IMG/VR virus record: IMGVR_UViG_3300020577_006051
Span: 26,245-90,244 of that record
Strand: one strand, 5' to 3'
DNA length: 64,000 nt
From: a virus
Lineage: Duplodnaviria; Heunggongvirae; Uroviricota; Caudoviricetes
This document shows positions 1,797 through 47,646 of this stretch, piece by piece (position 1 is the stretch's first letter; every line of letters begins with the position of its first letter). The notes under the pieces were generated by a model. The model made no database searches. It was not told where the DNA came from and worked only from the letters and a program-made list of their open reading frames with translations. The position numbers and the translations under genes were made by a program.

Positions 1797-2072
1797 GTGT
1801 CTAGATCAATCGTGGTCCTAGGGTTTGAAACCGAGCATAGCACTAGGCGAAAGATTAACTTGGAGGTCCTTATGAGAACACCGATGAGTCTTTGGTTCGA
1901 GCGATTGGAATCTAAGTGCTGGGATGTCTACGGTCTTGGAATCCACGGTCTTCCTAAGTTCAACTGGGCTGAGTGCTACCGCGATGGTCTGAGTGTGGAT
2001 GAGACGATCGCTTCGTTCGCTGACATGTATCCGACCTATACTAGGATGTACGCTACGAAGGAGGTTGTATGA
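1797..2072 (+). CDS. hypothetical protein
   Basis: 91-aa ORF in a GC-richer block. Confidence 0.5.
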   Translation: MSRSIVVLGFETEHSTRRKINLEVLMRTPMSLWFERLESKCWDVYGLGIHGLPKFNWAECYRDGLSVDETIASFADMYPTYTRMYATKEVV

Positions 2073-2331
2073 AGCGAGATGAGTTCGACCCGATAGGAAC
2101 GTTGGTTGGGATTCTGGTTCTAGTGTTCTGCATAGTATTCCTCTATAGATAAGGAGAATTGATATGGTAGTTTACTCACACGATTGGATCTTGGTTGGGT
2201 TAGGGATCTTCGCCTTAGTATGCTTCGCGGCTACGGTCGTGAACGGTTGGTTGGATGATGCTGAGTATCCAGCTGATTGATTAGTCCCGAAACTAGTATG
2301 CCATGACTCTCAACCAACTAAGGAGAATCAC

Positions 2332-2480
2332 ATGGATAAGAAACAACTAGTCAAGCTGATCATCGCTAACATGATCGCCGCTGGTCAGCAAGACATGATC
2401 CCCGTGGAATGGGTTGACTCGTGGTCGGATGAAGAGTGCGACTACATCATCGTCAACTACGGTCCTTATTACCTCAGCTG
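2332..2480 (+). CDS. hypothetical small protein (49 aa)
   Basis: unlisted ORF MDKKQLVKLIIANM... preceded by AAGGAG; fills a gap. Confidence 0.35.
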
Positions 2481-2508
2481 AGATACCTAGTGCTGCCCGC
2501 TAGTCGGG

Positions 2509-2523
2509 TGACACTGCTACGCC
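2509..2523 (+). promoter_or_regulatory. conserved intergenic box TGACACTGCTACGCC (copy 1)
   Basis: 15/16 match to the recurring 16-mer; followed 27 nt later by CTATATAG. Confidence 0.5.
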
Positions 2524-2601
2524 CGAGCACGGACCCGAGTCTATATAGTTATGTGAGCGACGAACGGTTGCTCAGAGTTCTGGATCCGATTCGAATCTAG
2601 T

Positions 2602-3177
2602 TTGTCAGTGAGTGTTAGTAACAACAACGTTTTAGGAGGTTCTATGACTACAAATACTACGGCTACTTCGACTATGACTCAAAAGGAAGCGGTTTACCAA
2701 GCGGTAACAACGATCCTCGACGAGAACGGCATCAAGTTCGAAGACGGTAACGATGTACGCGAAGTGTTGACGAGCGAGCTACGCGCGCAAGTTAAAGAGG
2801 TCCTGATCCAATCCTTCCTAGCTGGAATGGTTGCTATCGACGGCCAACGCGACGAGAAGTACATCAAGAGCTACGTGCCTGGCTTGATTACTAACCACAT
2901 CAGCAAGGATAAGCGTCTGAACGGTGGCGACAAGTACCAAGCTAAGAACCCTGGCTCACGCTTCGGCAGCAGCGACGACCAACTGAAAGCGCTCAAAGCT
3001 CTCAAGACTCAGCTCACTATGAACAACGCTGACGCAGAGGCTATCGCTGAGATTGAGCAACATATCGCTAACCGAACTAACGAGTTGAAAGCAGCTAAGC
3101 CAGTCAAAGCGAAGACAGTGAAAGTGAACTTCGAAGACCTTCCAGCTGAGTTGCAAGCTAAGTACAGCAACCAGTAA
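2602..3177 (+). CDS. conserved phage protein, family A (paralog of 16106..16705)
   Basis: C-terminus KVNFEDLPAELQAKYSNQ shared with the 16106 gene; likely start near 2644 (MTTNTT...). Confidence 0.7.
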   Translation: MSVSVSNNNVLGGSMTTNTTATSTMTQKEAVYQAVTTILDENGIKFEDGNDVREVLTSELRAQVKEVLIQSFLAGMVAIDGQRDEKYIKSYVPGLITNHISKDKRLNGGDKYQAKNPGSRFGSSDDQLKALKALKTQLTMNNADAEAIAEIEQHIANRTNELKAAKPVKAKTVKVNFEDLPAELQAKYSNQ

Positions 3178-3207
3178 TCAGACCCACTAAGATAAGCCCA
3201 CCACAAA

Positions 3208-3240
3208 GAGCCTGGCGCAAAGCCGGGCTCGACCCGTTTC
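3208..3240 (+). terminator. candidate terminator hairpin
   Basis: 9-bp stem GAGCCTGGC/GCCGGGCTC (one G-U) with GCAAA loop, weak T-tract. Confidence 0.35.
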
Positions 3241-3246
3241 AGCTAA

Positions 3247-3262
3247 CTGACACTGCTACGCC
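3247..3262 (+). promoter_or_regulatory. conserved intergenic box CTGACACTGCTACGCC (copy 2)
   Basis: exact 16-mer; GAGACTATATAGCTAT downstream mirrors copy 1. Confidence 0.5.
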
Positions 3263-3306
3263 GGATGGCCGAGACTATATAGCTATACCACTACAACGGA
3301 GGCACT

Positions 3307-3444
3307 ATGACTGTCAAAGAACTAATCGACATACTGAAACTCTCTGACCCGAATGCAAAGATAGTGTTCCCAGACGGACTGCCGCTGGTCTCGACCGAGG
3401 ACTACGGTGACGAAGTTGTCCTGTCTGATGCAGAACCAGAATAA
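3307..3444 (+). CDS. hypothetical small protein (45 aa)
   Basis: unlisted ORF MTVKELIDILKL...; AAGGAG-type SD. Confidence 0.35.
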   Translation: MTVKELIDILKLSDPNAKIVFPDGLPLVSTEDYGDEVVLSDAEPE

Positions 3445-3453
3445 GGAGCTGAT

Positions 3454-3609
3454 ATGTTTACTCTCGAAGAATTAGCACTGATAAGTGAGCAGCTGAAACT
3501 AGCAGTACGAAACAGAGAGCTGTACGGCGAGTGGAACGACGTCGCTAAGTCGGCCATCAAGAAGTGCAACGAGCTGTCCGAATCTACCAACGAGCAGGAG
3601 GAATCATGA
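3454..3609 (+). CDS. hypothetical small protein (51 aa)
   Basis: unlisted ORF; stop overlaps next start (ATGA). Confidence 0.35.
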   Translation: MFTLEELALISEQLKLAVRNRELYGEWNDVAKSAIKKCNELSESTNEQEES

Positions 3610-3851
3610 GACATATCACTAGAGCACAAATCATCCGTGAGCTAACTGAGATGTGGATGGACGCTCACCCTGATGAGATAGCAGCTGCGATCGCAGACAG
3701 CAACTGTTCGCCTAACTACAGCAAGTGGACAGACAGAGACCTGATCGACCTATATGAAGTGCTGACAGACACTAGACTGACGCCTGTGTTTCAAGTAGCT
3801 GAGTTTCAGCACTCTGACCCAGCCAGCGAAGGCATCAAGGCAGCTCGATGA
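3606..3851 (+). CDS. hypothetical protein
   Basis: in frame with listed ORF 3564..3851; internal ATG at 3606 gives ATGA coupling and an AGGAGG SD. Confidence 0.5.
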   Translation: MRHITRAQIIRELTEMWMDAHPDEIAAAIADSNCSPNYSKWTDRDLIDLYEVLTDTRLTPVFQVAEFQHSDPASEGIKAAR

Positions 3852-4177
3852 CTATTCGCTACTTCATCCACTTGCTCAACCGCTTCCTCCATCTTAAAGA
3901 TAGGGAACAGATTGAGCTATACTACCTACTGACCAATATGAAACGAAACCGAGACGACAATAGTTCGCCAACCAACAAAAAGGAATTCAATATGAGTAAG
4001 ATTAGTGATAAACAAATTAAAGAAATCGTTTTTTCGATAGCAGAAGAAATAGAAGAAATCATTGCCCAAGGGTTTGATGATGTTCTTGATGAATTGTCTG
4101 GGGATGAATTGTCTGAGGATGAAGCTGATGAGCTATACGAGCGTTACCACTCTATTCTTATTAAAGAACTCAGCTAA
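3848..4177 (+). CDS. hypothetical acidic protein
   Basis: 109-aa ORF, ATGA overlap with upstream gene, D/E-rich C-terminus. Confidence 0.5.
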   Translation: MTIRYFIHLLNRFLHLKDREQIELYYLLTNMKRNRDDNSSPTNKKEFNMSKISDKQIKEIVFSIAEEIEEIIAQGFDDVLDELSGDELSEDEADELYERYHSILIKELS

Positions 4178-10208: not shown

Positions 10209-10262
10209 CATCCGACACTATGTTAAGTACAATAAGATATCGAATATATTAGAGGTATCATT

Positions 10263-11507
10263 GTGATTGCTGTAATCTTAGCTGTATTTCATACATACTA
10301 TTTCTTTAGAGCAATCATGTGGATGTTCCTATGGTTGTCCTCATATGCTATGGGTAAAGTAACAGTTCGTTTGCATACACCAAATAAGCGATACTATCTG
10401 CTTTGTCCAATGTACAAAGAATCACAGATGGTTGAGCAGTTAGTCAACAACCTAAACAAGATTCAATATCCTCGCGATTTGCTACATGTTTGTCTTCTAC
10501 TAGAGCCAGATGATTTAAATACAATTGAAGCTGCTAAACAAATTACAGGTAGATTCGATGATTTAAAAGTCCATGTAATGATAGTTCCAGAATACTACCC
10601 AGGTCCGAAGACTAAACCCCGAGCAATGAATTACGCTCTAGAACAGATCAAAGATAACGATGGGTATGTTGTCGTCTACGATGCCGAAGATGAACCAGAG
10701 ATAGATCAGCTGTTGAAAGCTGTCACATGCTTCGACCGCAATCCTCAGATACATTGCTATCAAGCTGCATTAAACTATAAGAACTTCAAAGAGAACTGGC
10801 TTAGTCGCATGTTTACTATGGAGTATTCGTTCTGGTTCGACAATCTCATATTGGGGTTAGCAACAATCGAAGCTCCTATCCCATTAGGAGGAACATCTAA
10901 TCACTTTCGTATCCAATCGTTGCGTGATGTTGGTGGGTGGGATTCGTTCAATGTTACCGAAGACTGTGAACTTGGTCTACGCATGTACAAGAACAATATG
11001 AAAGTTGGAGTACTTAATTCTACTACCTGGGAAGAAGCATGTTGTCAGCCGTGGAACTGGATCAAGCAGAGAACTAGGTGGAGTATGGGATACATGTACA
11101 CTTGGGCTACTGTTAGTTCACCTAAGAACTGGCGAGGTCTACTAACATGGCACCTATTTGTATTAGGAACTCCGTTGGTTGCCTTGATAAATGTGTTTAT
11201 GCTAAGTGTGTTTGGCTTGTGGGTAACTGGTCACGATGTTAGTACGTTCTTTCCGACATTATTCTATTATAAGTTAGGAATATTATCGTTCGTAGTGGGT
11301 AATGGAACGTGCATCTTGTTGCCTGCTATTGCGTTCTGGGCTCGAGGTCACAAGAAGCGTGCATTACTATGTTTAACGTTACCGATTTATTGGTTATTGC
11401 ATTCAATCGCTGCGTATCGTGCTCTGTATCAGTATATTAAAAATCCCCATAAGTGGGAAAAGACTCAGCACGGTTTATCTAAACGAGATGATAGGGAGAA
11501 ACAATGA
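10263..11507 (+). CDS. membrane processive family-2 glycosyltransferase (PgaC/cellulose-synthase-like)
   Basis: N-terminal TMs, DAEDEPE (DxD), TED, QRTRWSMG (QxxRW) and C-terminal TM bundle. Confidence 0.8.
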   Translation: MIAVILAVFHTYYFFRAIMWMFLWLSSYAMGKVTVRLHTPNKRYYLLCPMYKESQMVEQLVNNLNKIQYPRDLLHVCLLLEPDDLNTIEAAKQITGRFDDLKVHVMIVPEYYPGPKTKPRAMNYALEQIKDNDGYVVVYDAEDEPEIDQLLKAVTCFDRNPQIHCYQAALNYKNFKENWLSRMFTMEYSFWFDNLILGLATIEAPIPLGGTSNHFRIQSLRDVGGWDSFNVTEDCELGLRMYKNNMKVGVLNSTTWEEACCQPWNWIKQRTRWSMGYMYTWATVSSPKNWRGLLTWHLFVLGTPLVALINVFMLSVFGLWVTGHDVSTFFPTLFYYKLGILSFVVGNGTCILLPAIAFWARGHKKRALLCLTLPIYWLLHSIAAYRALYQYIKNPHKWEKTQHGLSKRDDREKQ

Positions 11508-11842
11508 GAAGTTTATTATTGGCTTTGCTATTGCCTATTACAGCTTTTGCTGGTGAAGGTAAAGTTGGATTTGCTCCAATGTATTCTCTATCTCAAGATA
11601 AGCCTATCTATCGATTATGGATTGATACGACGTTAAATGTTCGTGATACGAGCGGAGTTGGTGCTTATGCTCAAACGGAGAGTAATGCTCGAATTGCGCC
11701 AAATTCAGGGTATTTAAAATTGTTCTTCTTCAAAGACTTTCATAGTATTCCTGCTCGTGCTACATTCTTTGCAGAAGATAACTATGGTGAAACTTATATT
11801 GAAAAACGTATTGGTGTATCGTTTGAGGCTAAGCTTTGGTAA
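11504..11842 (+). CDS. secreted protein, possible outer-membrane beta-barrel
   Basis: signal peptide MRSLLLALLLPITAFA; alternating hydrophobic pattern; C-terminal FEAKLW aromatic end; ATGA-coupled to the GT2 gene. Confidence 0.5.
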   Translation: MRSLLLALLLPITAFAGEGKVGFAPMYSLSQDKPIYRLWIDTTLNVRDTSGVGAYAQTESNARIAPNSGYLKLFFFKDFHSIPARATFFAEDNYGETYIEKRIGVSFEAKLW

Positions 11843-11868
11843 TACCCGATCATAAGTAGTAATGTGAG

Positions 11869-12120
11869 GTGAAAATGAAATCTGGTCTATATAAAAAATC
11901 GCAGATGGATCTAGTTGAAAAGAACACCGGCACAAAAGTATGGTCAAAGAGACCTGCTACTTTAACAAGAGAAGTTTATTCTTTTACTGGTTGTGAAATA
12001 TACGGAGTTGGATGTGAGGTCTTAATTGAGACTTGCTATAACGGTAGTTACACGATCTGGCATAAAGATATAACAATCCTCACAAATGCGAGGGAACACC
12101 ATGACTTTAAACTTGTTTGA
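11869..12120 (+). CDS. hypothetical protein
   Basis: 83-aa ORF. Confidence 0.45.
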   Translation: MKMKSGLYKKSQMDLVEKNTGTKVWSKRPATLTREVYSFTGCEIYGVGCEVLIETCYNGSYTIWHKDITILTNAREHHDFKLV

Positions 12121-12397
12121 TTACAATGTGGCTTTATCTATACTCATAATGAGTTGGGCTATCTTTGGTGGTCTAAATGCAATTATCTTTGCAAAGTTAA
12201 ATGATGAAATAACAACAGCAGATTTTGCGTTAGCTTTGCTACTTGGACCAGCTGGTTTACCTGGTGCTATTGGTTTACTTATTTATTACAAACCAGTTAT
12301 GATCTGGAAGAAGAAAACACCAGAACAGATAGAAGCTATCAAAGCTGAAAAAGAGAAGAAGAAATTAGAAAAGAAAAGTAAATCTAAGAAGAAGTGA
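12086..12397 (+). CDS. small 2-TM membrane protein with lysine-rich tail
   Basis: two hydrophobic helices then KKKLEKKSKSKKK. Confidence 0.45.
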   Translation: MRGNTMTLNLFDYNVALSILIMSWAIFGGLNAIIFAKLNDEITTADFALALLLGPAGLPGAIGLLIYYKPVMIWKKKTPEQIEAIKAEKEKKKLEKKSKSKKK

Positions 12398-12679
12398 TTA
12401 AGACTTCTTGGTTCTCTCTTCGAGACCAGGATTCTTGTCTGCAAATTGACTAGAGTTTGGAGTAGGAACTTTAGCTTTCATCTTGTTGTCTGAAGTTTGT
12501 TTCTGACTGCGAGATGGAACTCCATGCAGTTGTCCCTTAGTACCATGATCTACTGGTAATTGACCTTGTACTTTGAGAGAACGATACGAAAGATAGTCGT
12601 CATCGAGTGGACGATCATTCTCAGCGTTCTTCTCTAGTAATGTCCATTGCCCTAATGGGCTAAATACGAGTGTTTCCAT
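12398..12679 (-). CDS. hypothetical protein
   Basis: 93-aa minus-strand ORF exactly filling the gap between two plus-strand genes. Confidence 0.3.
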   Translation of the reverse strand: METLVFSPLGQWTLLEKNAENDRPLDDDYLSYRSLKVQGQLPVDHGTKGQLHGVPSRSQKQTSDNKMKAKVPTPNSSQFADKNPGLEERTKKS

Positions 12680-12987
12680 GTAGTTATTATAACACGAGGT
12701 TGAATATGGATGTTATGCTTGGTTTTGACTTTATTATCATGACTATTAAAAACGAACACAGAAGTCTAACTGAAATGTTAGCAATATTAGATGGTAAACG
12801 AATTGATGAACCTGATTTTGAATTAAATTTGCTGGAAAAATATCCAAAAGACTTTGAATTCATTACCTCAAAAGCTCAACATGGCAGATTCTTTTCAGAA
12901 CAACCTCAGCTCGATTTACGTGGATGGTCTTTTCAACTGACTGTTAAGAAAGAGTATACCGAGATCAAGATATCTGGAATTAAATAA
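12670..12987 (+). CDS. hypothetical protein
   Basis: 105-aa ORF (likely start MDVMLGF near 12706). Confidence 0.45.
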   Translation: MFPCSYYNTRLNMDVMLGFDFIIMTIKNEHRSLTEMLAILDGKRIDEPDFELNLLEKYPKDFEFITSKAQHGRFFSEQPQLDLRGWSFQLTVKKEYTEIKISGIK

Positions 12988-13004
12988 TCTTAAGGATTGT
13001 TAGT

Positions 13005-13586
13005 ATGAAGAAGTTAATCTTGTCAGCACTATTAATTAGTTTAATGGCTTGTGGCCAAAATGGCAAAGATGGTCTTCCAGGAACAGATGGTCAGAATGGT
13101 TCTGATGGTGCAAACGGAACTAATGGTACGAACGGTAAAAATGGAAAAGATGGCTCCAATGGAGCTAACGGAATAGATGGCAAAGATGGCAAAGATGGAT
13201 TAAATGGACAAGATGGTGTGTCGCCTACGTTACAAGTTGTAGTGACACAATCTATTACATGTTCTAATGGCGGTACTCAAGTTGTTCTACTAACTAATGG
13301 TGTACCGCAAGCATTTGAAATATGTAATGGTGAAGTTGGACAAACAGGCCCACAAGGTGCAAGTGGTGTTCCATTAGACATAGAGATCATTGACCCGTGC
13401 GGTGATGCAGCAGGAATATACGACGAAGTTCTCCTACGTTTACCTGATAAAACCCTCATCGCTTCTTTTAGTGCAAATGCAAATGGACAAAACACAAGAC
13501 TATCGGTTCTTACGCAAGGTAATTACATAACGACAGATGGATCTAACTGTAGATTTTCTGTAGATGCAAATGGAAATATAAATTGA
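13005..13586 (+). CDS. collagen-like repeat lipoprotein
   Basis: lipobox LISLMAC; about 17 Gly-X-Y triplets (GKDGLPGTDGQNGSDGANG...); globular C-domain. Confidence 0.8.
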   Translation: MKKLILSALLISLMACGQNGKDGLPGTDGQNGSDGANGTNGTNGKNGKDGSNGANGIDGKDGKDGLNGQDGVSPTLQVVVTQSITCSNGGTQVVLLTNGVPQAFEICNGEVGQTGPQGASGVPLDIEIIDPCGDAAGIYDEVLLRLPDKTLIASFSANANGQNTRLSVLTQGNYITTDGSNCRFSVDANGNIN

Positions 13587-13598
13587 GTCGGAGGTAGT

Positions 13599-14105
13599 AT
13601 GCTACTAATTGGACTTTTAGTTACTTATCAGATAAAGCACTTTATTTGCGACTACCCTCTGCAAAATGAATACATGTTGGGGAAGTTTAAACCAAAAAGT
13701 TGGGTAACACCACTCTTAGCTCACGTAAGTGTTCATGGTGTTGCAACCTTTATTATTGCTAGTTTATTTACAACTCCACTGATTGGGTTAGGTTTAGCGC
13801 TGTTTGACATGATAATTCACTTTATCATGGATCGAATAAAAGCAAGCCCTAAACTCTTAGGGAGATATAAGTCTCTATCTCCTGGTCAATATAATATGGC
13901 AAAGAATATGTCTCACGGATTAGGTGCAATTGACGGTAAACCTTTACCACACGAATTAGAACCTGAAACATTAGAAGCTTATAAAAACGCCGGCATTAAA
14001 GATTTGCGCGGTAATAAATTGTTTTGGTGGTGTCTTGGTCTAGATCAGATGGTTCATCATTTAACTCACTATGTAATCATTATCGTTATCTTGGCTCTAC
14101 AATGA
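13599..14105 (+). CDS. polytopic membrane protein (DUF3307-like HxxxDxxxQ)
   Basis: HFICDYPLQ motif plus several TM helices. Confidence 0.5.
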   Translation: MLLIGLLVTYQIKHFICDYPLQNEYMLGKFKPKSWVTPLLAHVSVHGVATFIIASLFTTPLIGLGLALFDMIIHFIMDRIKASPKLLGRYKSLSPGQYNMAKNMSHGLGAIDGKPLPHELEPETLEAYKNAGIKDLRGNKLFWWCLGLDQMVHHLTHYVIIIVILALQ

Positions 14106-14247
14106 GAACAGTGACGTGGCCTGAACTATATAAATGGATACGTTTTACTAAAAAATATGGTTCTATTGGTAATGGAGAGCCCATTAAAACTAAATGTCAA
14201 CTAAAGATGTTGTTTGTGTTAATAAGTTTAAATGTAATAAAGGATGA

Positions 14248-14445
14248 ATGATGAAAACTTTTCACGCTGTTTTTCTTATTTTGTTTGTGGTATTGTTGCC
14301 ATTAAATGTTGGATCAGCTGTTATTCACTATCGAACCGATAACAATACTGGTTTACTAGTCAGTATACTGGCAATTGGTTTGTGCGCATTCAACATTCAC
14401 CGTTCTTTCATGTTCCTCACGAAATCCACCGATTCGAATAAGTGA
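14248..14445 (+). CDS. small membrane protein
   Basis: 65 aa, two hydrophobic helices. Confidence 0.4.
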   Translation: MMKTFHAVFLILFVVLLPLNVGSAVIHYRTDNNTGLLVSILAIGLCAFNIHRSFMFLTKSTDSNK

Positions 14446-26809: not shown

Positions 26810-27529
26810 ATGTCTAAGTTTATCTCGATTCTTACCCACACGTCTATCGCAGCAGCAGTGGGATTTGGAGCATTCAAAGTAACCACTACTTACAACGGTC
26901 ATGCTAAGTCAGCAGAGATCTCCAAACTAGAGAACAATATCGCACTTCTAAAGTCTCAAGAGGAAGCAGATCGTCAGTTAGGTCAGTACGTGATCAACAT
27001 GATGTATCAAACATCTGCTGCAACTAAACTATCTGATGCTAAGAAACTCACTCTTGCTCGCTCAATCGTTCGCGTAGCTAACGATGTGTTCGAGACCACA
27101 GAGAACAAGAAGGCGTTCGTTGCACTATTAGCAATTGAGTCTGAGTTTCAACGCAATGCTCAAAGTCCTACAGGACCTAAAGGTCTCTCGCAGGTAGCCA
27201 AAGCTGCCTTCAAAGAAGGTCTCGAGAGTTGTGGGATCACGAATGTTAAGGAAGATGATGTTTGGGAAACAGACATCAATCTCTACGCAGGTGCGTGCTA
27301 CTTCCGCTCTTTACTTGATAAACATAATGGCGACCACTATATCGCGATCGTAGGTTATAACCAAGGTCCTTACAGCAAAGATGTTAAGTCATATGCTAAG
27401 CATGGCCGTGTTGAGAATGTAGAAGCTCTTAAGTATATCGCTCGCTTCACGTTCCTCAAACGCACAGTAACAGACGCTAAGAAACCTAATGTTGTGGCAA
27501 TGGATAAAGTAGAAGTTAAAGTTAAATGA
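26810..27529 (+). CDS. membrane-anchored lytic transglycosylase (SLT domain)
   Basis: N-terminal TM; LLAIESEFQRNAQSPTGPKGLSQV ... YNQG SLT motifs. Confidence 0.7.
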   Translation: MSKFISILTHTSIAAAVGFGAFKVTTTYNGHAKSAEISKLENNIALLKSQEEADRQLGQYVINMMYQTSAATKLSDAKKLTLARSIVRVANDVFETTENKKAFVALLAIESEFQRNAQSPTGPKGLSQVAKAAFKEGLESCGITNVKEDDVWETDINLYAGACYFRSLLDKHNGDHYIAIVGYNQGPYSKDVKSYAKHGRVENVEALKYIARFTFLKRTVTDAKKPNVVAMDKVEVKVK

Positions 27530-31631: not shown

Positions 31632-32381
31632 ATGAAACAATTTCTTTTACCATTATTGATCTTAGCTACAGGTTGTACAGTCGTTAGTCCTGGTGAACGT
31701 GGCATCGGCATCTCTCAAGGTGAGATCAATAAAGAAGTTCGCAAGCCAGGTACCTATCTTTGGATCCCTCACTTTCGCGGTAGCGCTGTCATGGATGTTC
31801 AGATCCAGAAGAGCGACATCGAGTCTGGTGCAGCTACAAAAGACCAACAAGAGCTTATGACTAAAGTTGCCGTCAACTGGCAAATTGAAGAAAGCAAAGT
31901 GGTAGAGATCTACGAGAACTTAGGTAACCTACGAGCTGTACTAACAAACGTAATCGAGCCTCAAGTTCACGAAGTAATGAAAGCTTGTGTTTCGAAGATG
32001 TCCGCAGAAGAAGTGTTGTCGAAGCGTCAAGAACTTAAAGAACAGATGGATGCTGCACTCAAAGCACGTCTATCTCCTTACGGAATCACTATTCGCGACG
32101 TGTCGATCATCAACTTCGAGTTCGGTAAAGAGTATAAGAATGCTATTGAACAGAAGCAAGTTGCAGAGCAAAAAGCTAAGCAAGCTGAGTATGAAGCGCA
32201 AAAAGCAGAGCAAGATGCTCGTGCTGCGATCAATACAGCTCGTGGACAAGCTGAATCGCAGAAGTTAGTACAACAGACATTGACACCACTAATGATTGAG
32301 TTGAAGAAGGTGGAAAAATGGGATGGCAAACTACCGACGACAATCTTGGGCAACACAACCCCAATGATCAATGTGAAGTAA
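31632..32381 (+). CDS. SPFH/band-7 (prohibitin-like) lipoprotein
   Basis: lipobox LATGC; VVSPGERGIG band-7 start; long Ala/Gln/Glu coiled coil. Confidence 0.75.
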   Translation: MKQFLLPLLILATGCTVVSPGERGIGISQGEINKEVRKPGTYLWIPHFRGSAVMDVQIQKSDIESGAATKDQQELMTKVAVNWQIEESKVVEIYENLGNLRAVLTNVIEPQVHEVMKACVSKMSAEEVLSKRQELKEQMDAALKARLSPYGITIRDVSIINFEFGKEYKNAIEQKQVAEQKAKQAEYEAQKAEQDARAAINTARGQAESQKLVQQTLTPLMIELKKVEKWDGKLPTTILGNTTPMINVK

Positions 32382-35696: not shown

Positions 35697-37484
35697 TTAC
35701 TTTTTCTTAACGAAACTAACTTCACAAGATCCAGTTGCACAGTCATCTACTTCAGCTGCTTCAACTTTATACTGCTCGTTGAACTTAGCTTTACCTTCTT
35801 CAAGGCTCAGAGCTTTAAGTGGTGGTTCATGGATGACGCCTTTATCGTCTACGTATCCACGACTGTTCTCACGATAGAACGTTGTTCCTTTAAGCGAAGG
35901 CAGATATTCCAACCATAGGTCGTTCATCTCTTCGATAGGATAGTCTTCGGCGATGTTGATCGTCTTAGATACTGCGTTGTCAACATGCTTCTGAATGATA
36001 CGTTGAACTTCCATGTGATCGCGAACAGAGATATCGCGTGCGCCAACGAAGTGATCAACAGACTTACCTTCCTTCATGAACTGAACGAACAATGGGTGTA
36101 AGCAAAGCTCAACCTTACGCTCATCCTTGTCCCAGTAGCGACGCTCATAAGCTGGAGCAAACATCGGCTCGATGCCAGAGCTACAGTTACCAGAGAGAAT
36201 CGATACTGTTCCTGTAGGTGCCTGAGTTAGGATCGCGCAGTTGCGGATACCGTGTTCAGCAACCAATGAGCGAACTTTAGGTCCCATGCGCTTCATGAAG
36301 CCGGACTCAACGTGTTTGTCAGGTTGGCAGAGCGGAAACGCTCCCTTCTCCATAGCGAGCATTACAGAAGCTTCGTATGAAGTCTTAGCGATGAACTTAT
36401 AGAGCTTGTCGATAAACTTGTTACCATCTTCTGAACCGTAGCGAACACCGAGCATAGCAAGCATGTCAGCAAGCCCAGTTGTTCCTAGACCAATGCGACG
36501 CAAGCTGTGTGACTTAGCCTTCATCTCAGGAAGTGGGTAAGTGTTAACAGTTAGAACGTTGTCCAAGAAGCGAACTGCAGTGCGAATGGTATCGCCCAGA
36601 GTAGCATAGTCGATGTCGCCGTCTTTGACGAAGCGAGTCAACACCAGATGTCCTAGGCAGCAGCAGTCGTAAGCGCTCAACGCGATCTCACCGCATGGGT
36701 TTGTAGTTACTAAAGGTTCGATGTAAGAAATGTTACTTTCACTCTCAACTAATTCCCAGTTCAAGAAACCAGGTTCAGCAGAGTTGTAAGCGTTAGTTAC
36801 GATGGTGTTCCAAAGCTCTTTAGCCTTGACCACGCGCTTGTACTTACCTTTCCACGACAGTTCCCAATCACCGTCTTCTTTGACTGCTTTGATGAATGCC
36901 TTCGTGTCTTTACTGCGAACAGATACGTTAGCATGGGTAAGCTCACCTTTGACCAACTTAGCGTTCAAGAACTCTTCGATATCTGGATGGTCGAGGTCTA
37001 GACTAAACATGAGAGCGACGCGACGTTGTCCACCGTTCTTAACTGGCTTAGCGCAAGAGTCGATTAAGCGCATCAATTCAACTGCGCCAGGTGCAACACC
37101 TTTCTGGTCAGAGATCATTGCACCTTTAGGACGGATGTCGCTGAAGTCGTCTCCGCAACCGCCACCAGTCATGGACGTAACGATCATGTTGTGAGCGGAC
37201 TTGCCCCAACCTTCTTTAGAATCTTTGTTTGGATCGAGAACGAAACAGTTCAAAAGCTGTGGATTAGTGCGGCCGGAGTTGTACCAGATGCGTCCACCAG
37301 GAACAAACATATTGTTCGATAAGATGTCGAAGAATCTTTGCTCGTACTGTTTTTGTTTTTCAGGGTATTCAGCGAGAGCCATCTGACGAGCCACGCGCTG
37401 GCAAGCTTCGGACCAACTTTCCTCTGGCGTGAATGCGTAACGGTCTTTAAAGATCTTTAGGGAAAAGTCTTCTGGATTAAACAA
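35697..37484 (-). CDS. ribonucleotide reductase catalytic subunit, class II-like
   Basis: LLNCFVL and TNPCGEIAL active-site Cys/Glu, C-terminal CATGSC pair, no ATP cone; 595 aa; no nrdB in window. Confidence 0.65.
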   Translation of the reverse strand: MFNPEDFSLKIFKDRYAFTPEESWSEACQRVARQMALAEYPEKQKQYEQRFFDILSNNMFVPGGRIWYNSGRTNPQLLNCFVLDPNKDSKEGWGKSAHNMIVTSMTGGGCGDDFSDIRPKGAMISDQKGVAPGAVELMRLIDSCAKPVKNGGQRRVALMFSLDLDHPDIEEFLNAKLVKGELTHANVSVRSKDTKAFIKAVKEDGDWELSWKGKYKRVVKAKELWNTIVTNAYNSAEPGFLNWELVESESNISYIEPLVTTNPCGEIALSAYDCCCLGHLVLTRFVKDGDIDYATLGDTIRTAVRFLDNVLTVNTYPLPEMKAKSHSLRRIGLGTTGLADMLAMLGVRYGSEDGNKFIDKLYKFIAKTSYEASVMLAMEKGAFPLCQPDKHVESGFMKRMGPKVRSLVAEHGIRNCAILTQAPTGTVSILSGNCSSGIEPMFAPAYERRYWDKDERKVELCLHPLFVQFMKEGKSVDHFVGARDISVRDHMEVQRIIQKHVDNAVSKTINIAEDYPIEEMNDLWLEYLPSLKGTTFYRENSRGYVDDKGVIHEPPLKALSLEEGKAKFNEQYKVEAAEVDDCATGSCEVSFVKKK

Positions 37485-37661: not shown

Positions 37662-38168
37662 ATGAGAGCAAAACAAATGCCAGTAATTTACTTTTTAGCT
37701 AGCCTTATCATACATATAGGGCTAATTTTAGGTATTGCCTCTATTCAGCAAACTCAACAAAAACAACAGGCAGAACAGAAACAAGGTCAAGGCCAACCGC
37801 CGCGAGAATCTGTCAAAGTAAAAATCATCGAGAAACCAAAAGAAGAAAATAAAGTTAAGATGAAGATCGCAACTAAGAAAGAACCTAGTAAGACTAAAGT
37901 AGCTGAACCAGAAGTTAAGAACGAAGAGAAATGTCCACAGTTCTACTACGGAATTGGTATCTATACGGATCCAAGCTTGTGTGTCGTGACTAAAGTTTAT
38001 CCAGGTTACTCAGCCGATCGTTCTGGAATAAAACCAGGCGATATGATTTTGATCCCTAACTGTGGATCGATTCGCGGTACAAGAGAAGAGGAATTCGATA
38101 TGACATTGATCCGCCAAGGCGAGATCATTAATTTAAAGATTAATAGGGAGAAAATCTGTGAAGGTTGA
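37662..38168 (+). CDS. membrane-anchored PDZ-domain protein
   Basis: N-terminal TM, Q/K-rich linker, then GIGIYTD...YSADRSGIKPGDMIL PDZ. Confidence 0.55.
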   Translation: MRAKQMPVIYFLASLIIHIGLILGIASIQQTQQKQQAEQKQGQGQPPRESVKVKIIEKPKEENKVKMKIATKKEPSKTKVAEPEVKNEEKCPQFYYGIGIYTDPSLCVVTKVYPGYSADRSGIKPGDMILIPNCGSIRGTREEEFDMTLIRQGEIINLKINREKICEG

Positions 38169-39396
38169 AGATTTTGCTAGAAAAAATACAGTATCTACAA
38201 AAGCAGGTGGAACCCAAAGATGGGAAGTATATGATTCAGCTAAATTAGAGGAATATTTGGCTATTTTTAATTATAAAATTGGACCATTAGCAACCAAACT
38301 AAACCAATCTTACTCCATGATTAGAAGATTGGTAACTTCTAGTGGATTAAAAGAAAAGTGTGATATAAAGCAGCAATCTATAAAAGGCGGAAGACCAAGA
38401 TCTACTAATATTGATAAATTTGGATATGTTTATGCTGAACCAGAACATGACTATATAGATCAAAATGGAGATAAAAAAAGAAAACATTTACATCTAGTTA
38501 TTGCTGAAAAAAAACTTGGACGACCATTAAATGCAAATGAAGTTGTTCATCATATAAATTTAGATAAAGAAGATAATAGACCTGAAAATCTCTATATATG
38601 TGATCAATCTACACACCGCAAGGTACATCAAAATTTGGAACATTTAGCTGCTAGATTAGCCCAAATAGGACAAATAGAATTTGTTCCTGAATTGCAAGAA
38701 TATGTTTTGGTTCAAAATCCACTTAAGTTACAAAAACATATACAAGGTGGTTTTGTTAAAGTAGTCGATGTTCTTGGATCTGACGCAACTGTTGTTAATT
38801 CTGCAAGAGTTTCATTTGGCAAATCAGTTTCTAACATTCGAGATCAAGATAAAAAGCTATTAGATTATTTAGCAAAAAATGGCCATACAAGTCCATTTAG
38901 ACATTGTTATGTTCAGTTACATGTAAAGGCACCAGAGTTTGTTGCTAGACAATGGTATAAACACATAGTCGGTACAGAGTATTCATTTAAAGATCAACCA
39001 TGGAATGAAATTTCTGGACGATATGTTGAGTATGATTTTTCTACTTGGGAACCAGAACATTTACGAAAGCAATCAGCAGATAAAAAACAAGGATCTTCTG
39101 ATGAATATGTTGAACATGAAGCGGAATTAATTGAGCAATATAAAAAGTTTACAAATGACGCTTTTAAATTTTATGAATACTTAATAAGTCAAGGTGTTTG
39201 TAAGGAGCAAGCTAGAACAGTTTTGCCTTTAAATTTTTATACAGAATGGTATTGGACTGCAAGTCTACAATCAATTCAACATTTTGTTAAATTAAGGACA
39301 GACCTACATGCTCAAATTGAAATACAAGATTTTGCATGGGCAGTTAACGAAATGATGGGGCAAATATTTCCAAATGCATGGAAAGCTTTAAGTTAA
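38158..39396 (+). CDS. thyX: HNH endonuclease fused in frame to a flavin-dependent thymidylate synthase (ThyX) domain with non-canonical RHR motif
   Basis: aa 120-160 HNH (VVHHINLDKEDNRPENLYICDQSTHRKVH); aa ~196-412 collinear with T. maritima ThyX; RHR replaced by KHI plus 8-aa insertion. Confidence 0.75.
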   Translation: MKVEDFARKNTVSTKAGGTQRWEVYDSAKLEEYLAIFNYKIGPLATKLNQSYSMIRRLVTSSGLKEKCDIKQQSIKGGRPRSTNIDKFGYVYAEPEHDYIDQNGDKKRKHLHLVIAEKKLGRPLNANEVVHHINLDKEDNRPENLYICDQSTHRKVHQNLEHLAARLAQIGQIEFVPELQEYVLVQNPLKLQKHIQGGFVKVVDVLGSDATVVNSARVSFGKSVSNIRDQDKKLLDYLAKNGHTSPFRHCYVQLHVKAPEFVARQWYKHIVGTEYSFKDQPWNEISGRYVEYDFSTWEPEHLRKQSADKKQGSSDEYVEHEAELIEQYKKFTNDAFKFYEYLISQGVCKEQARTVLPLNFYTEWYWTASLQSIQHFVKLRTDLHAQIEIQDFAWAVNEMMGQIFPNAWKALS

Positions 39397-40071: not shown

Positions 40072-40776
40072 ATGGAAACGATGCCTCTCATTCTACCAAA
40101 AAGCGAAAGTGACGAGATCTGGGTCACAGAGTTTAATCCGCAATCTGCTCAAGAATTTAGAGACCGAGTCTTGGAAGAAGCCAAGAAAGGTCCAGATCGC
40201 CCTATCGTTATCTACATCGACAGCTACGGTGGTCAAGTTGATTCCTTGGCCAAGATGATTGCTACACTAGATGAAGTATCGAATCCTATCGTTACTTGCT
40301 GCATGGGCAAAGCAATGAGCTGTGGTGCTATGTTGTTAGCTCATGGCGATGTCCGTTTCTGTGATAGTCATAGCCGAATTATGGTTCATAAAGTTAGTGC
40401 AATGGCAATGGGTAACGTAGACGATATCGTCACAGACACGGAAGAGATTTCTCGTCTAAATGAATATTGGATGAATGTATTGGCAACGGACTGCGGAATC
40501 AAGGGTGGATATCAGGAATTAAGTGAGATCTTACGTTCTAAGGATGGTCATGAACGTTATTTCACACCGCAAGAAGCTAAGACATTTGGTCTCATCGACA
40601 TTATTGGATTACCAAAGGTTGTTGCTGATACGGTCTACGATGTGGCTACTATTCCTGTCAAAACATCTCCATATAAAGAAAGCAAGTGGCGGGCAAAATA
40701 TAGATCAGAACCCGAAAAGAAAGCACCCCAAACGAAAACTCTTAAAAAGAGTAAAACAAAAGGAGCTAAGAAATGA
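40072..40776 (+). CDS. ClpP-family serine protease
   Basis: IVIYIDSYGGQVDS ... CMGKAMSCGAMLLA ... IMVHKVS; K-rich tail. Confidence 0.8.
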   Translation: METMPLILPKSESDEIWVTEFNPQSAQEFRDRVLEEAKKGPDRPIVIYIDSYGGQVDSLAKMIATLDEVSNPIVTCCMGKAMSCGAMLLAHGDVRFCDSHSRIMVHKVSAMAMGNVDDIVTDTEEISRLNEYWMNVLATDCGIKGGYQELSEILRSKDGHERYFTPQEAKTFGLIDIIGLPKVVADTVYDVATIPVKTSPYKESKWRAKYRSEPEKKAPQTKTLKKSKTKGAKK

Positions 40777-41117: not shown

Positions 41118-41315
41118 ATGGGATTTCACGAAGACGACAGAATTCGCAATAAGAACCGTGCTGCGAATGCCGCTTATGCTAAGTATCAAGAGTATAAAGA
41201 TAAGAAGTTGTCTGACTCTGATATTCTTCAAGAATTAGAGAAGACAGAAAACTCTAACTATGCGGTGGTACATGAAATTCGTAAGATCGTTGCTGCAAAA
41301 AGCGGCCAAAAGTAA
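41118..41315 (+). CDS. hypothetical protein
   Basis: 65-aa ORF. Confidence 0.4.
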   Translation: MGFHEDDRIRNKNRAANAAYAKYQEYKDKKLSDSDILQELEKTENSNYAVVHEIRKIVAAKSGQK

Positions 41316-42045
41316 ATTAGCTAAAGCAGCTTTGATTGGGTTATCTGTATTTGGATACATTACATTTACATTAAGAGCTCAAGAGTTACACGACAACTAC
41401 TTATTCTCTTATGTAGGTACGAGCGTATACTTTGTTATGTCACCCCAAGTTCAAGGTGGTGGAAGTGCTTTCACTTTGAGATATAAAGGTAAAACTTACG
41501 GTATAACCAATGCACATGTATGTAGAGCGTTAGCTGGTAAACCTCTAGTACTGATAAGTGACTTTTACGGAACATATATCACTTCGCAGAAGTTGATCTC
41601 TAAGAAATATGACCTATGCTTGATCGAAGCACCACAGGACGATCATGGTTTGTCAGTTTCTACTGACATCTCACAGAATCAAACTGTGTGGGCTGTCGGT
41701 CATCCGCAAGGTTGGCCACTAACAGTATCTAATCCTGGTCATGTCATCATGGCTAAAACATGGGAAATACCTGCTATCCAAGGTCCGTGTCCAGATACCT
41801 TAGATAAATCTGTCTATCAAACTAGACAAAATCAGTTTGGTCAAGTGTGCACGCTTACTTCGAACTATGTTCAAACAACAGTATTCATCGATTTTGGAAG
41901 TTCTGGATCACCTATGGTAGATTTTTACGGAAACGTAGTTGGTGTTAATACCATAAAAGATGGGTTTAACTACGCTAATTTTATTACATCTGAAGATGTA
42001 GTTAATTTCTTAGAAGAAGAGGTTTTAAATGTCCCTACCAAATAA
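41260..42045 (+). CDS. membrane-anchored trypsin-like serine protease
   Basis: TNAHVC (His), DLCLIE (Asp), GSSGSPMVD (Ser); N-terminal TM. Confidence 0.6.
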   Translation: MRWYMKFVRSLLQKAAKSKLAKAALIGLSVFGYITFTLRAQELHDNYLFSYVGTSVYFVMSPQVQGGGSAFTLRYKGKTYGITNAHVCRALAGKPLVLISDFYGTYITSQKLISKKYDLCLIEAPQDDHGLSVSTDISQNQTVWAVGHPQGWPLTVSNPGHVIMAKTWEIPAIQGPCPDTLDKSVYQTRQNQFGQVCTLTSNYVQTTVFIDFGSSGSPMVDFYGNVVGVNTIKDGFNYANFITSEDVVNFLEEEVLNVPTK

Positions 42046-47389: not shown

Positions 47390-47646
47390 CAAATTTCAGT
47401 ACTAAGGCTTACACTTTAAACGTGTTGATTTCGGAAGTCCAAAGTTTGGACGTCGTTACAGTCAACAATTTCCGCACTTTTGCTCGTGCTATCAGTCCTC
47501 GTGCTGGTGTTAAGAGCACAAAAGTTAAAGTGTTGAACTACTTCTTGAACGGTAAATTGCGTTCAATCGTAAACAACAGCTTCAACGGTAGCGACATTAA
47601 AGACCGCTTATTGGTTGCTTTGAAGGCTCGTAAAAACGCTCGTTAA
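47374..47646 (+). CDS. hypothetical protein
   Basis: 90-aa ORF. Confidence 0.5.
   Translation: METNMTNFSTKAYTLNVLISEVQSLDVVTVNNFRTFARAISPRAGVKSTKVKVLNYFLNGKLRSIVNNSFNGSDIKDRLLVALKARKNAR

Follow-up and report, generated by a model that had tools for sequence, protein, structure and literature searches.

A phage gene pair encoding a GT2 synthase without MshEN and a small secreted β-strand protein, a candidate cassette for envelope glycan production

NfrB, the GT2 synthase of the NfrB-NfrA(-YbcH) N4-glycan-receptor system of E. coli, is an experimentally supported c-di-GMP-activated EPS synthase (PMC8669469, PMC8669472). It is encoded by a host gene that phage N4 exploits, not by a phage gene, and this gene lies directly 5' of and overlaps nfrA, which encodes the outer membrane (OM) exporter. 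The nearest viral analogue of the locus reported here is found in the chloroviruses, whose HAS and CHS (PBCV-1 A98R, CVK2 CHS) are virus-encoded, membrane-embedded, processive GT2 enzymes, expressed from early genes, which make the cell extrude polymer and cover infected cells with fibres (PMC5408694). We found no description of phage-directed extracellular polysaccharide synthesis in the literature searched.

The locus studied here resembles nfrB-nfrA in that a gene for a GT2 synthase with DxD, TED, and QxxRW motifs directly precedes and overlaps the gene of an OMP-like β protein. We lean, with moderate confidence, towards a minimal c-di-GMP-independent synthase which, together with an OM conduit, coats infected cells. 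The two-gene cassette comes from a large uncultured lytic phage and lies in a window of 64,000 nucleotides, the whole stretch of DNA that was analysed. The phage setting is backed by the presence in the window of T4-type RNA ligase, Pnk, RNR, ThyA, DNA ligase, and many homing endonucleases, and the phage genes of the window are almost all on a single strand. No structural genes were identified among the window ORFs scanned; tail, baseplate, and endolysin genes are found on related cassette-bearing contigs. The window also carries further envelope-targeted genes near the cassette. No sugar-nucleotide genes were detected among the larger window ORFs scanned, the window contains no tRNAs and no Rfam match, and scans for promoters and terminators, repeats, and upstream motifs around the cassette returned nothing exceeding background. 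Against cultured phages, megablast of the cassette region gave no match and tblastn of conserved proteins gave distant relatives only.

The synthase and its cellular relatives

A first, sequence-only reading had delimited two ORFs here, the first with a 414-aa product, and both were confirmed at the same coordinates. They are not chance frames, since homologs of the glycosyltransferase (GT) number in the thousands and the partner recurs in 10 other phage contigs. The features of the first gene are as follows.

10251..10255, + strand: Shine-Dalgarno-like AGAGG, 7 nt 5' of the GT start codon, GTG (read from the sequence)
10263..11507, + strand: GT gene, start codon GTG at 10263, encoding a 414-aa membrane-embedded GT2 synthase, short form without MshEN (ORF, Pfam, AF2, Foldseek, hhalign)
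10266..10343, + strand: predicted N-terminal TM helix, aa 2-27 (DSSP on the model, hydropathy, alignment)
10680..10691, + strand: DxD motif D140-A-E-D143, invariant in 40 family members, aligned with FDADH of BcsA
10956..10964, + strand: TED motif T232-E-D234, putative catalytic base, invariant in the 40 members, aligned with TED of BcsA
11067..11081, + strand: QxxRW motif Q269-R-T-R-W273, within predicted helix 263-283, aligned with QRGRW of BcsA
11130..11441, + strand: C-terminal membrane region, predicted helices aa 290-321, 333-360, and 364-393 (DSSP, hydropathy)
11454..11474, + strand: conserved C-terminal motif W398-E-K-T-Q-H-G404 (conserved columns in 40 members)

The three catalytic motifs lie where the first reading had seen them (aa 140-143, 232-234, and 269-273), the Q, R, R, and W residues of the last being likewise invariant in the 40 family members. 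TM helices at both ends of the protein, which had also been proposed, were recovered by hydropathy and DSSP (aa 1-27, then 290-321, 333-360, and 364-393). The cellular enzymes have two TM helices ahead of the catalytic domain, and the N-terminal helix of the GT corresponds in the alignment to the second of them. Helix 364-393 is probably an interface helix because it has basic flanks on both sides. The phage enzyme would probably have about three true TM helices in addition to interface helices. In the C-terminal motif, W, K, T, and H are invariant and E and G are conserved in at least 90% of the 40 members; hhalign revealed that a W-[DE]-K-T-x-H pattern is common to the GT and NfrB (AWDKTTHD). 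With regard to the gating loop of BcsA, the alignment to BcsA stops short of this motif.

The assignment of the GT to the membrane-embedded, processive-type GT2 synthase class is supported by its motifs, Pfam, hhalign, and Foldseek. The GT2 models PF13641 (E 5e-25, 89.2 bits for a cut-off of 27), PF13632 (E 3e-21, 76.7 bits, cut-off 27), and PF00535 (25.2 bits, cut-off 23.3) all score above the gathering threshold, which places the protein in glycosyltransferase family 2 with its GT-A fold. The AF2 model (pLDDT 92.3, pTM 0.90) shows a GT-A domain resting on interface helices and a bundle of TM helices, as in processive GT2 synthases. In a Foldseek search, hyaluronan and cellulose synthases ranked best (E 1e-14 to 5e-16), with CvHAS at the top (E 5e-16), XlHAS1 at TMq 0.69, and BcsA at TMq 0.68, and chitin synthases came next. 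BcsA was the sole PDB sequence match and the best profile match in hhalign (prob 98.3, E 2e-14), ahead of NfrB (prob 97.8), which aligned over 351 columns, the most for any characterized enzyme, and PgaC (prob 97.4, over the GT domain only).

The kinship with PgaC, cellulose synthase, and hyaluronan synthase that was read from the sequence thus holds at the level of the class and not at that of orthology, because the NCBIfam equivalog scores are all 10 to 20 times under their cut-offs. A PgaC/IcaA-type poly-β-1,6-GlcNAc synthase was rejected (TIGR03937, 31.5 bits versus 422.3; no PgaD-like gene), as were BcsA (TIGR03030, 36.8 bits versus 699.1; no PilZ domain by Pfam, and no BcsB in the window neighbourhood by Pfam) and an NfrB-type c-di-GMP-activated synthase (NF011305, 21.9 bits versus 409; no MshEN).

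The GT is instead a branch of a widespread, uncharacterized family of MshEN-GT2 enzymes present in at least 585 species, for example Xanthomonas sacchari and Mucilaginibacter. Its closest cellular relatives, of about 620 aa, share 40 to 46% identity with it (query coverage 88 to 99%, E about 1e-91 to 1e-95), and the catalytic and membrane core is homologous throughout, with 58 invariant columns. The cellular enzymes are about 610 to 650 aa long, with two pre-catalytic TM helices, and an MshEN domain occupies the N terminus in about 78% of them: it was found in 63 of 79 cellular loci and, among the matches listed in a metagenome scan that served as a negative control and returned essentially cellular loci, in 62 of 80 further cellular-type loci. 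No such region was detected in any phage locus with a custom N-terminal HMM, nor in the GT with Pfam. The phage enzymes have lost the c-di-GMP receptor domain carried by most cellular relatives, and they should therefore work whatever the c-di-GMP state of the host. The loss of MshEN is the most informative feature of the phage enzymes and was absent from the first reading.

The cellular loci also differ in their neighbours. A polytopic membrane protein of about 500 aa follows the GT gene in 59 of 80 loci and is absent from all phage loci; a BcsB-like protein is encoded in 31 of the 80, often 5' of the GT gene; and GH5 or GH113 hydrolases were present in both cellular operons inspected. With about three true TM helices predicted and the ~500-aa membrane protein missing from the phage, it is uncertain whether the GT forms an autonomous channel.

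The secreted partner

The second gene begins inside the first and has the following features.

11494..11499, + strand: Shine-Dalgarno-like GGGAGA preceding the partner gene, still within the 3' end of the GT gene (read from the sequence)
11504..11842, + strand: partner gene, encoding a 112-aa secreted protein (ORF, family HMM)
11504..11554, + strand: predicted signal peptide, aa 1-17, MRSLLLALLLPITAFA, cleaved before G, no lipobox Cys (sequence, hydropathy)
11555..11839, + strand: mature partner, about 95 aa, six predicted antiparallel amphipathic β-strands, ending in K-L-W

As had been noticed from the sequence, the stop of the GT gene overlaps the partner ATG at 11504 as ATGA (11504-11507), and the two genes are translationally coupled. 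The proposed cleavable signal peptide stands as well: by eye, MRSLLLALLLPITAFA followed by GEGK fits an SPase I site with A at -3 and -1, and comparable N termini occur in every member of the family. Equally real is the alternation of hydrophobic and polar residues, conserved family-wide. The AF2 model (pLDDT 88.3, from an MSA of 5 sequences) consists of six strands of 10 to 13 residues. Two traits of OM β-barrel proteins are therefore both predicted, a signal peptide for Sec export and antiparallel amphipathic strands long enough to span a membrane. The likeness to a β-barrel suggested by the first reading therefore survives as regards the strands and fails as regards the barrel, since six strands in 95 residues, where at least 8 are needed, cannot close a barrel within one chain. 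The C terminus (...GVSFEAKLW) had been compared with an OMP terminal signature. Of the 11 members, 10 do have a [KR]LW motif, which stands at the very end of the protein in 8. In the canonical OMP β-signal, however, the last residue is aromatic and in phase with hydrophobic residues at -3, -5, and -7, whereas the terminal W of the partner sits on the polar-parity face and the hydrophobic register is shifted by one.

The partner represents a new family. It has no match in Pfam, PHROG, or NCBIfam, and Pfam at E <= 10 gave nothing meaningful for eight members. An indexed search of 5.8 billion clusters with the single sequence retrieved the sequence itself alone, a profile search retrieved the five known members only, and tblastn with a partner as query found nothing among cultured phages. 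Comparison with BFVD produced marginal matches only, including small cyanophage OMP-like proteins. An exporter of the PgaA, BcsC, AlgE, or NfrA type, a 16- to 18-strand barrel usually with periplasmic TPRs, was considered and rejected, and in hhalign the partner profile proved unrelated to the barrels of NfrA and PgaA (PgaA, prob 2.4%).

These features leave room for a partner that is not an OM pore. The GT would still be a polymer synthase in that case, and the partner would be a β-sheet protein that binds glycan in the periplasm or at a membrane, for instance as a face-to-face β-sandwich dimer. It would replace, in minimal form, the BcsB-like periplasmic subunits that cellular relatives use, and would guide the growing chain or hold it. 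The product could remain in the periplasm, as osmoregulated glucans do, or be released by exporters of the host. We regard this as unlikely. It would agree with a sheet face whose aromatic and charged residues are conserved, as in carbohydrate-binding surfaces, with six strands that make no barrel, with a C-terminal signature off-register for the BAM β-signal, and with the lack of relationship to NfrA or PgaA. However, AF2 returned no sandwich but a single, strongly curved meander sheet resembling a wall segment of an OM β-barrel, whose opposite face is uniformly hydrophobic throughout the family, and the terminal aromatic residue is conserved. The weak sequence matches to SpaA/prealbumin-type β-sandwich repeats, two multi-stretch matches that were all phmmer found besides the query among 1.84 billion representatives, were judged compositional, because they cross domain boundaries and the other family members do not show them. 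We keep to the reading of the partner as part of an OM conduit, a role as exporter being one that it may have.

Probable product and joint function of the pair

The product of the GT could be a polymer or a smaller glycoconjugate. PcManGT, an archaeal mannosyltransferase (6yv7), has the same minimal CesA-like fold (Foldseek, TMt 0.72) and no known polymerization activity, so that the fold alone is no proof of processivity. The QxxRW motif is shared by lipid glucosyltransferases of the GT21 type, and many relatives of the GT show a weak match to PF13506 (GT21). A distantly similar GT of Staphylococcus phage AH12 is annotated as a β-monoglucosyldiacylglycerol synthase, TM helices are few, and the membrane protein of ~500 aa that accompanies the cellular enzymes is missing. 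Accordingly, the GT might be a non-processive or length-limited glycosyltransferase acting on a lipid or an envelope glycoconjugate, with a diacylglycerol- or ceramide-type glycolipid, a polyprenol carrier, or a NodC-like oligosaccharide as candidate products. The phage would thereby alter membrane or LPS properties, with the partner, as an OM protein, taking up, flipping, or displaying what the GT makes. We hold this to be quite improbable. The best structural and profile matches are polymerizing enzymes (HAS, BcsA, NfrB, PgaC), and a polymer is favored over a lipid because the cellular relatives are MshEN-gated like EPS synthases and are accompanied by BcsB-like subunits and GH5/GH113 hydrolases. 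It is also favored because NfrB, c-di-GMP activated and paired with the OM exporter gene nfrA, makes a secreted EPS (PMC8669469).

The linkage of the two genes is conserved, and the cassette is exclusive to phages. With the family HMM, all 11 phage contigs that have a short GT showed the partner directly after it, against none of the 160 cellular-type loci among the matches listed. The contigs span 32 to 67% GC and differ in genomic neighbourhood, the reading frames overlap in most of them, and neither the 5.8 billion clusters nor the 1.84 billion representatives searched yielded a partner that lacked a GT. This strongly conserved pairing argues for a joint function. The phage GTs fall into two clades, each with 100% bootstrap support. 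Some phages of diderm Bacteroidota carry a GT homolog without any partner; that such partner-less GTs might belong to phages of monoderm hosts was rejected, as their relatives are Cellulophaga and Tenacibaculum phages.

It is very improbable that the genes are co-inherited yet functionally separate, the GT having an unrelated inner-membrane role and the partner being an OM superinfection-exclusion or envelope-remodelling factor that blocks a receptor or disturbs the BAM machinery through its β-signal-like end: receptor blocking by small OM proteins or lipoproteins of phages is well known (T5 Llp, Cor, and Lom-type proteins), small proteins with a "cyanophage OMP-like β-barrel domain" occur without a GT, and other envelope-targeted genes lie nearby in the window, but the association is strict, immediate, and maintained across diverse backbones and GC contents.

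Our working model is that of a synthase-conduit cassette serving envelope glycan production. The GT would be an inner-membrane synthase of the BcsA/NfrB/HAS type that polymerizes a host UDP-sugar on the cytoplasmic face and threads the polysaccharide across the inner membrane. The partner would insert in the OM as a homo-oligomer, for example with 2x6 or 3x6 strands, and would conduct or anchor the polymer; residues R20, W22, Y38, Q40, E42, Y53, K55, E91, K93, and W95 could line a polar, sugar-contacting face. OM barrels assembled from several short protomers of 4 strands each have precedents (TolC, YadA anchors, CsgG); we know of no OM barrel made of 6-strand protomers, and the oligomerization of the partner is a conjecture on our part. 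The infected cell would thereby acquire a coat of glycan specified by the phage, most plausibly to mask receptors against superinfection and to keep progeny from adsorbing to infected cells or debris. What the analysis shows is the family membership, the motifs, the predicted folds, the loss of MshEN, and a linkage of the two genes that is conserved in phages and exclusive to them; processivity, constitutive activity, the polymer, the oligomeric OM pore, and the biological purpose are what we infer.

A bolder version of this model, which we find doubtful, is that the ~95-residue partner is the protomer of a new class of homo-oligomeric OM β-barrels, each subunit giving six strands, and forms with the synthase the smallest complete second-messenger-independent machine known for making and exporting a polysaccharide, a mobile cassette with which lytic phages re-coat the infected cells of diverse diderm hosts. 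If our model is true, the partner would be a new and extremely small OMP-like family that could inform on the minimum number of strands and residues for building or extending an OM conduit, and it would offer a compact component for engineered glycan secretion. The masking of receptors by a glycan of phage origin would also bear on superinfection exclusion, the design of phage cocktails, and biofilm ecology. The takeover of the host pathway would be simple, the catalytic core being retained and the c-di-GMP receptor domain dropped. The phage enzymes moreover point to a widespread, unstudied bacterial system composed of an MshEN-GT2 enzyme, a ~500-aa membrane protein, and a BcsB-like protein, and the 414-aa, regulator-free phage version may give the easiest entry to the biochemistry of MshEN-GT2 enzymes.

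Comparison with known systems

The cellular MshEN-GT2 family has the same core and invariant motifs as the phage GT and, in the 160 cellular-type loci listed, never occurs with the small partner. Among characterized systems, NfrB-NfrA is tied to MshEN/c-di-GMP biology through these cellular relatives, and the alignment of NfrB to the GT covers the catalytic and membrane regions as well as the C-terminal motif; the two proteins are nevertheless only about 20% identical, and MshEN is C-terminal in NfrB, N-terminal in the cellular relatives, and absent from the phage GT. NfrA, a TPR protein of 990 aa, has a 16-strand barrel, whereas the partner has 95 aa and six strands and is unrelated in sequence.

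The BcsA-BcsB-BcsC system shares BcsB-like subunits with the cellular relatives of the GT. BcsA has a PilZ domain, is about twice the size of the GT, and has far more TM helices, and its alignment with the GT ends past the first post-catalytic TM helix; the phage lacks both BcsB and a BcsC-type TPR/16-strand exporter. PgaC is similar to the GT in size and TM arrangement, but the phage has no PgaD-like or PgaB-like partner and the small protein is unrelated in sequence to PgaA. KdgM and NanC are monomeric 12-strand barrels with no detectable sequence homology to the partner, two copies of which roughly equal one of them in size and strand number.

The chlorovirus synthases, only 13 to 14% identical to the GT, belong to viruses of eukaryotic algae and, as the phage cassette would, lean largely on the host for the supply of sugar nucleotides. 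No export partner is dedicated to them, whereas the cassette includes an OMP-like protein that would suit the diderm envelope. If our reading is true, virus-directed extracellular polysaccharide synthesis would extend from the chloroviruses to bacteriophages.

Cassette layout and the glycosyltransferase

On balance, we favor reading the cassette as a pared-down synthase-dependent secretion system. The sequence-only reading had placed the pair exactly, both ORFs being found at 10263-11842, and the overlap that it described between the stop of the glycosyltransferase (GT) gene and the start of the next gene is the tetranucleotide ATGA, in a classic translational-coupling layout.

Features of the cassette (window coordinates)
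10263-11507, plus strand: GT gene, ORF of 414 codons with a GTG start and a TGA stop
7 nt upstream of the GT start, plus strand: AGAGG, read from the sequence
11504-11842, plus strand: partner gene, ORF of 112 codons, its ATG lying in the ATGA at 11504-11507
5 nt ahead of the partner ATG, within the GT gene, plus strand: GGGAGA, read from the sequence
N-terminus of the partner: MRSLLLALLLPITAFA, followed by GEGK, judged on inspection to be an SPase I signal peptide lacking a lipobox

The GT belongs firmly to GT2 (Pfam PF13641, E 5e-25; PF13632, E 3e-21), and it carries the anticipated DAED (aa 140-143), TED (aa 232-234), and QRTRW (aa 269-273) motifs together with hydrophobic helices at both termini. 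The likeness to PgaC, cellulose, and hyaluronan synthases claimed from the sequence holds for motifs, fold, and profiles but does not extend to equivalence, as none of the NCBIfam models for named synthases reached its cut-off (36.8 against 699 bits for CelA, 31.5 against 422 for PgaC/IcaA, and 21.9 against 409 for the NfrB-type model). No PHROG matched the GT, and the sole match in a PDB sequence search was BcsA (E 3e-4), with the pairings YDAEDEP/FDADHVP, TEDCELGL/TEDAETAL, and QRTRWSMG/QRGRWATG. An AlphaFold2 model computed from an alignment of 40 sequences (pLDDT 92.3, pTM 0.90) was closest, in a Foldseek search of the PDB, to the Chlorella-virus and Xenopus hyaluronan synthases and to bacterial BcsA (E 5e-16 to 1e-14, TMq at most 0.69), with chitin synthases ranking next; the archaeal mannosyltransferase PcManGT shares the same minimal fold.

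Profile-profile comparison related the GT family to E. coli BcsA (probability 98.3%, 274 columns), NfrB (97.8%, 351 columns), and PgaC (97.4%, 242 columns). Of the three, NfrB alone aligned across the entire membrane region and the conserved C-terminal motif (KWEKTQHG in the phage GT, AWDKTTHD in NfrB), whereas the BcsA alignment stopped short of this motif, which we considered as a gating-loop equivalent. Since basic residues flank both sides of helix 364-393, it is probably an interface helix, leaving probably only about three true transmembrane (TM) helices. Distant membrane GT2s are also encoded by eight jumbo Staphylococcus phages of 260 to 275 kb (S6, Madawaska, MarsHill, Machias, and AH12 among them), seven of which align over 87 to 96% of the query at ~22% identity under annotations varying between glycosyltransferase and β-monoglucosyldiacylglycerol synthase; membrane-embedded GT2s are thus present in cultured phages of monoderm hosts too and are apparently unstudied.

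The partner protein

The partner, which starts with the putative signal peptide given above, ends in GVSFEAKLW. No Pfam, PHROG, or NCBIfam family matched it, and searches of 5.8 billion clusters and of 1.84 billion representatives yielded no convincing homologs besides copies adjoining phage GTs, which are only 18 to 31% identical to it. All copies have a signal peptide and a mature N-terminus reading E-G-K-[VIL]-G or a close variant; K55 is invariant, and R/K20, an aromatic residue at 38, Q/E40, and Y/F53 are nearly so. A search of BFVD gave marginal similarity only, some of it to small proteins labeled "cyanophage OMP-like β-barrel domain."

Although built from only five sequences, the five AlphaFold2 models agree (pLDDT 88.3, pTM 0.72) on six antiparallel strands of 10 to 13 residues joined by tight turns. 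Throughout the family, one strand parity is hydrophobic, and the other carries the conserved R20, W22, Y38, Q40, E42, Y53, K55, E91, K93, and W95, an amphipathicity consistent with one side facing lipid and the other forming a lumen or binding face that is polar and suited to sugars. The "beta-barrel-like" description therefore stands for the predicted amphipathic strands but not for a closed barrel, which six strands cannot form, so that oligomerization must be assumed. Similarly, the terminal FEAKLW had been likened to an outer membrane protein (OMP) signature: most members do end in [KR]-L-W, but the last W does not keep the register of the canonical β-signal. Nor is the profile of the partner related to the NfrA and PgaA barrels. 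A periplasmic glycan-binding sheet or sandwich with no pore, which would need no closed barrel, is a rather unlikely alternative, against which the hydrophobic strand parity and the common C-terminus favor a membrane-inserted partner.

Relatives, linkage, and phage setting

Among thousands of database relatives of the GT, the closest (43 to 73% identity, 405 to 468 aa) all lie on phage-like metagenomic contigs, and a further phage-like copy, 37% identical, is on an IMG/VR contig. The closest cellular relatives (40 to 46% identity, about 610 to 650 aa) carry the c-di-GMP receptor domain MshEN (PF05157; PMC5013675) at the N-terminus and then two TM helices, and this family has matches in at least 585 species genomes from most phyla. 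A custom HMM of the cellular N-terminal region matched 63 of 79 genomic GT ORFs and, among the matches listed, 62 of 80 metagenomic ones; it found no MshEN-like region in the phage GT loci. A neighbor-joining tree resolved two phage clades, each with 100% bootstrap and both apart from the MshEN-bearing group: clade A (413 to 417 aa, one N-terminal TM), which contains the window GT, and clade B (447 to 468 aa, two N-terminal TMs).

In the cellular loci, a ~500-aa polytopic membrane protein without Pfam, NCBIfam, or PDB match is encoded immediately 3' of the GT in 59/80 cases and a BcsB-like protein upstream in 31/80; the two operons inspected also encode GH113 or GH5 hydrolases. Synthase-dependent exopolysaccharide systems typically have such a gene set, which speaks against the family glycosylating lipids. 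We found no characterized member of the N-terminal MshEN-GT2 family in the literature, and this widespread system of MshEN-GT2, ~500-aa membrane protein, and BcsB-like protein, present for instance in Xanthomonas sacchari and Mucilaginibacter jinjuensis, is apparently uncharacterized. A glycolipid or an oligosaccharide, instead of a polymer, is improbable as the product of the phage GT. Several points weigh against the favored secretion system: the small number of TM helices in the phage GT and its want of the cellular ~500-aa partner, the absence of sugar-nucleotide genes from the ORFs scanned, and a GT family with apparently no biochemically characterized member.

The partner occurs in 11/11 phage loci and in 0/160 cellular-type loci (Fisher p 1.5e-17, not phylogeny-corrected). 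An HMM built from eight members recovered three copies outside its training set (E 2.5e-17, 5e-28, and 7e-30 in loci L010, L178, and L179) and, among the matches listed, none in the 160 cellular-type loci. The start of the partner gene and the GT stop overlap in most loci; in phage-like locus L009, a 56-aa ORF with two hydrophobic helices (2453-2623) lies between the two genes and overlaps both, perhaps encoding a small membrane subunit like PgaD or perhaps being an insertion. Different phages have different genes beside the cassette (DnaB and PolB, RNA ligase, baseplate, or UDG) and the contigs range from 32% to 67% GC, so that the cassette behaves as a mobile two-gene unit held together by selection. 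Independent functions for the GT and the partner are therefore very improbable. A further point against the favored secretion system is that relatives of Cellulophaga and Tenacibaculum phages, whose hosts are diderm, carry a GT homolog (33% identity) with no partner gene. On four IMG/VR contigs related to Cellulophaga phage phiST/phi13:1, whose portal is 68% identical, this homolog has 455 aa and adjoins the portal gene; cultured Cellulophaga phages were absent among the GT matches.

The window resembles the early or nucleotide-metabolism part of the genome of a large lytic phage, with nearly all genes on one strand, including T4-type RNA ligase, polynucleotide kinase, ribonucleotide reductase (RNR), DNA ligase, and a ThyA split by an HNH region, along with many HNH and GIY-YIG homing endonucleases. 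It has no nucleotide-level relatives among 50,697 deposited phages, and neither tRNA genes nor Rfam matches were found in it. As no structural gene was identified among the window ORFs scanned, the assignment to a phage is based on gene content, together with related contigs in which the same cassette adjoins tail, baseplate, and endolysin genes.

Several other window genes deserve mention. In the thymidylate synthase ORF at 38158-39396 (plus strand), the N-terminal ~190 aa match HNH endonucleases and only aa 190-411 match ThyA, which points to the insertion of a mobile element or to a gene fusion; 20 kb away there is another thymidylate-synthase-like ORF, a divergent one (58949-59740, plus strand). 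A set of genes unusual in a phage replication region, at 31632-32381, 40072-40776, and 41260-42045 (plus strand) and 47643-48575 (minus strand), encodes an SPFH/Band 7 protein, a trypsin-like protease, and two ClpP-family proteases; of the latter, one has a weak NfeD-like N-terminus and the other is listed on the minus strand. The RNR large-subunit ORF (35697-37484) stands out by its listing on the minus strand, the window being otherwise plus-strand, and by lying within a GC-rich patch (0.449 versus ~0.38); this patch and another at 2001-4000 (0.488) may be recent acquisitions. At 26810-27529 (plus strand), away from any lysis or tail genes identified, the encoded protein of 239 aa contains an SLT lytic transglycosylase domain (E 8e-14).

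Closer to the cassette, 10263-14445 is an envelope-targeted gene cluster that includes TM proteins (12086-12397 and 14248-14445) and, 1.8 kb 3' of the cassette, a DUF3307 membrane protein (13599-14105, plus strand; phrog_2470, "membrane protein, moron"). A DUF3307 gene directly follows the partner in phage-like locus L003 (9648-10091), and the protein may be an occasional cassette accessory. At 13005-13586 (plus strand), a 193-aa protein has a lipoprotein-type signal peptide, MKKLILSALLISLMAC, with lipobox LMAC, then collagen G-x-y repeats (Pfam Collagen, E 5e-11) and a globular C-terminus; its PHROG is "collagen-like minor tail" or tail fiber, and such a lipoprotein is odd within a phage early region.

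Proposed mechanism and known systems

In the secretion system that we favor, an inner-membrane processive GT2, no longer under c-di-GMP control because it lacks MshEN, would be cotranslated with a small β protein inserted in the outer membrane (OM), and a homo-oligomer of this partner would conduct or anchor the GT product. Receptor masking or superinfection exclusion might be the purpose, the least secure step of the proposal. The observation made from the sequence is upheld, and its interpretation in part.

Both synthase-dependent exopolysaccharide systems and virus-encoded processive GT2s are already known. The nfrB-nfrA pair is a close parallel: the GT2 NfrB is activated by c-di-GMP, and its gene and that of the OM exporter overlap by 14 nt (PMC8669469); the product is a surface glycan that serves phages as a receptor (PMC8669472). 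Among viruses, the parallel is chlorovirus HAS/CHS, early genes that coat infected algae with fibers, after which other viruses are inhibited in their attachment, although the function is still debated (PMC5408694). We found no bacteriophage-encoded synthase/OM-partner pair in the literature. Compared with these systems, what appears to be new is the systematic loss of the c-di-GMP domain in a phage lineage, a phage-restricted, predicted six-strand OMP-like family tied to a synthase, and the spread of the cassette over phages of widely differing GC content.
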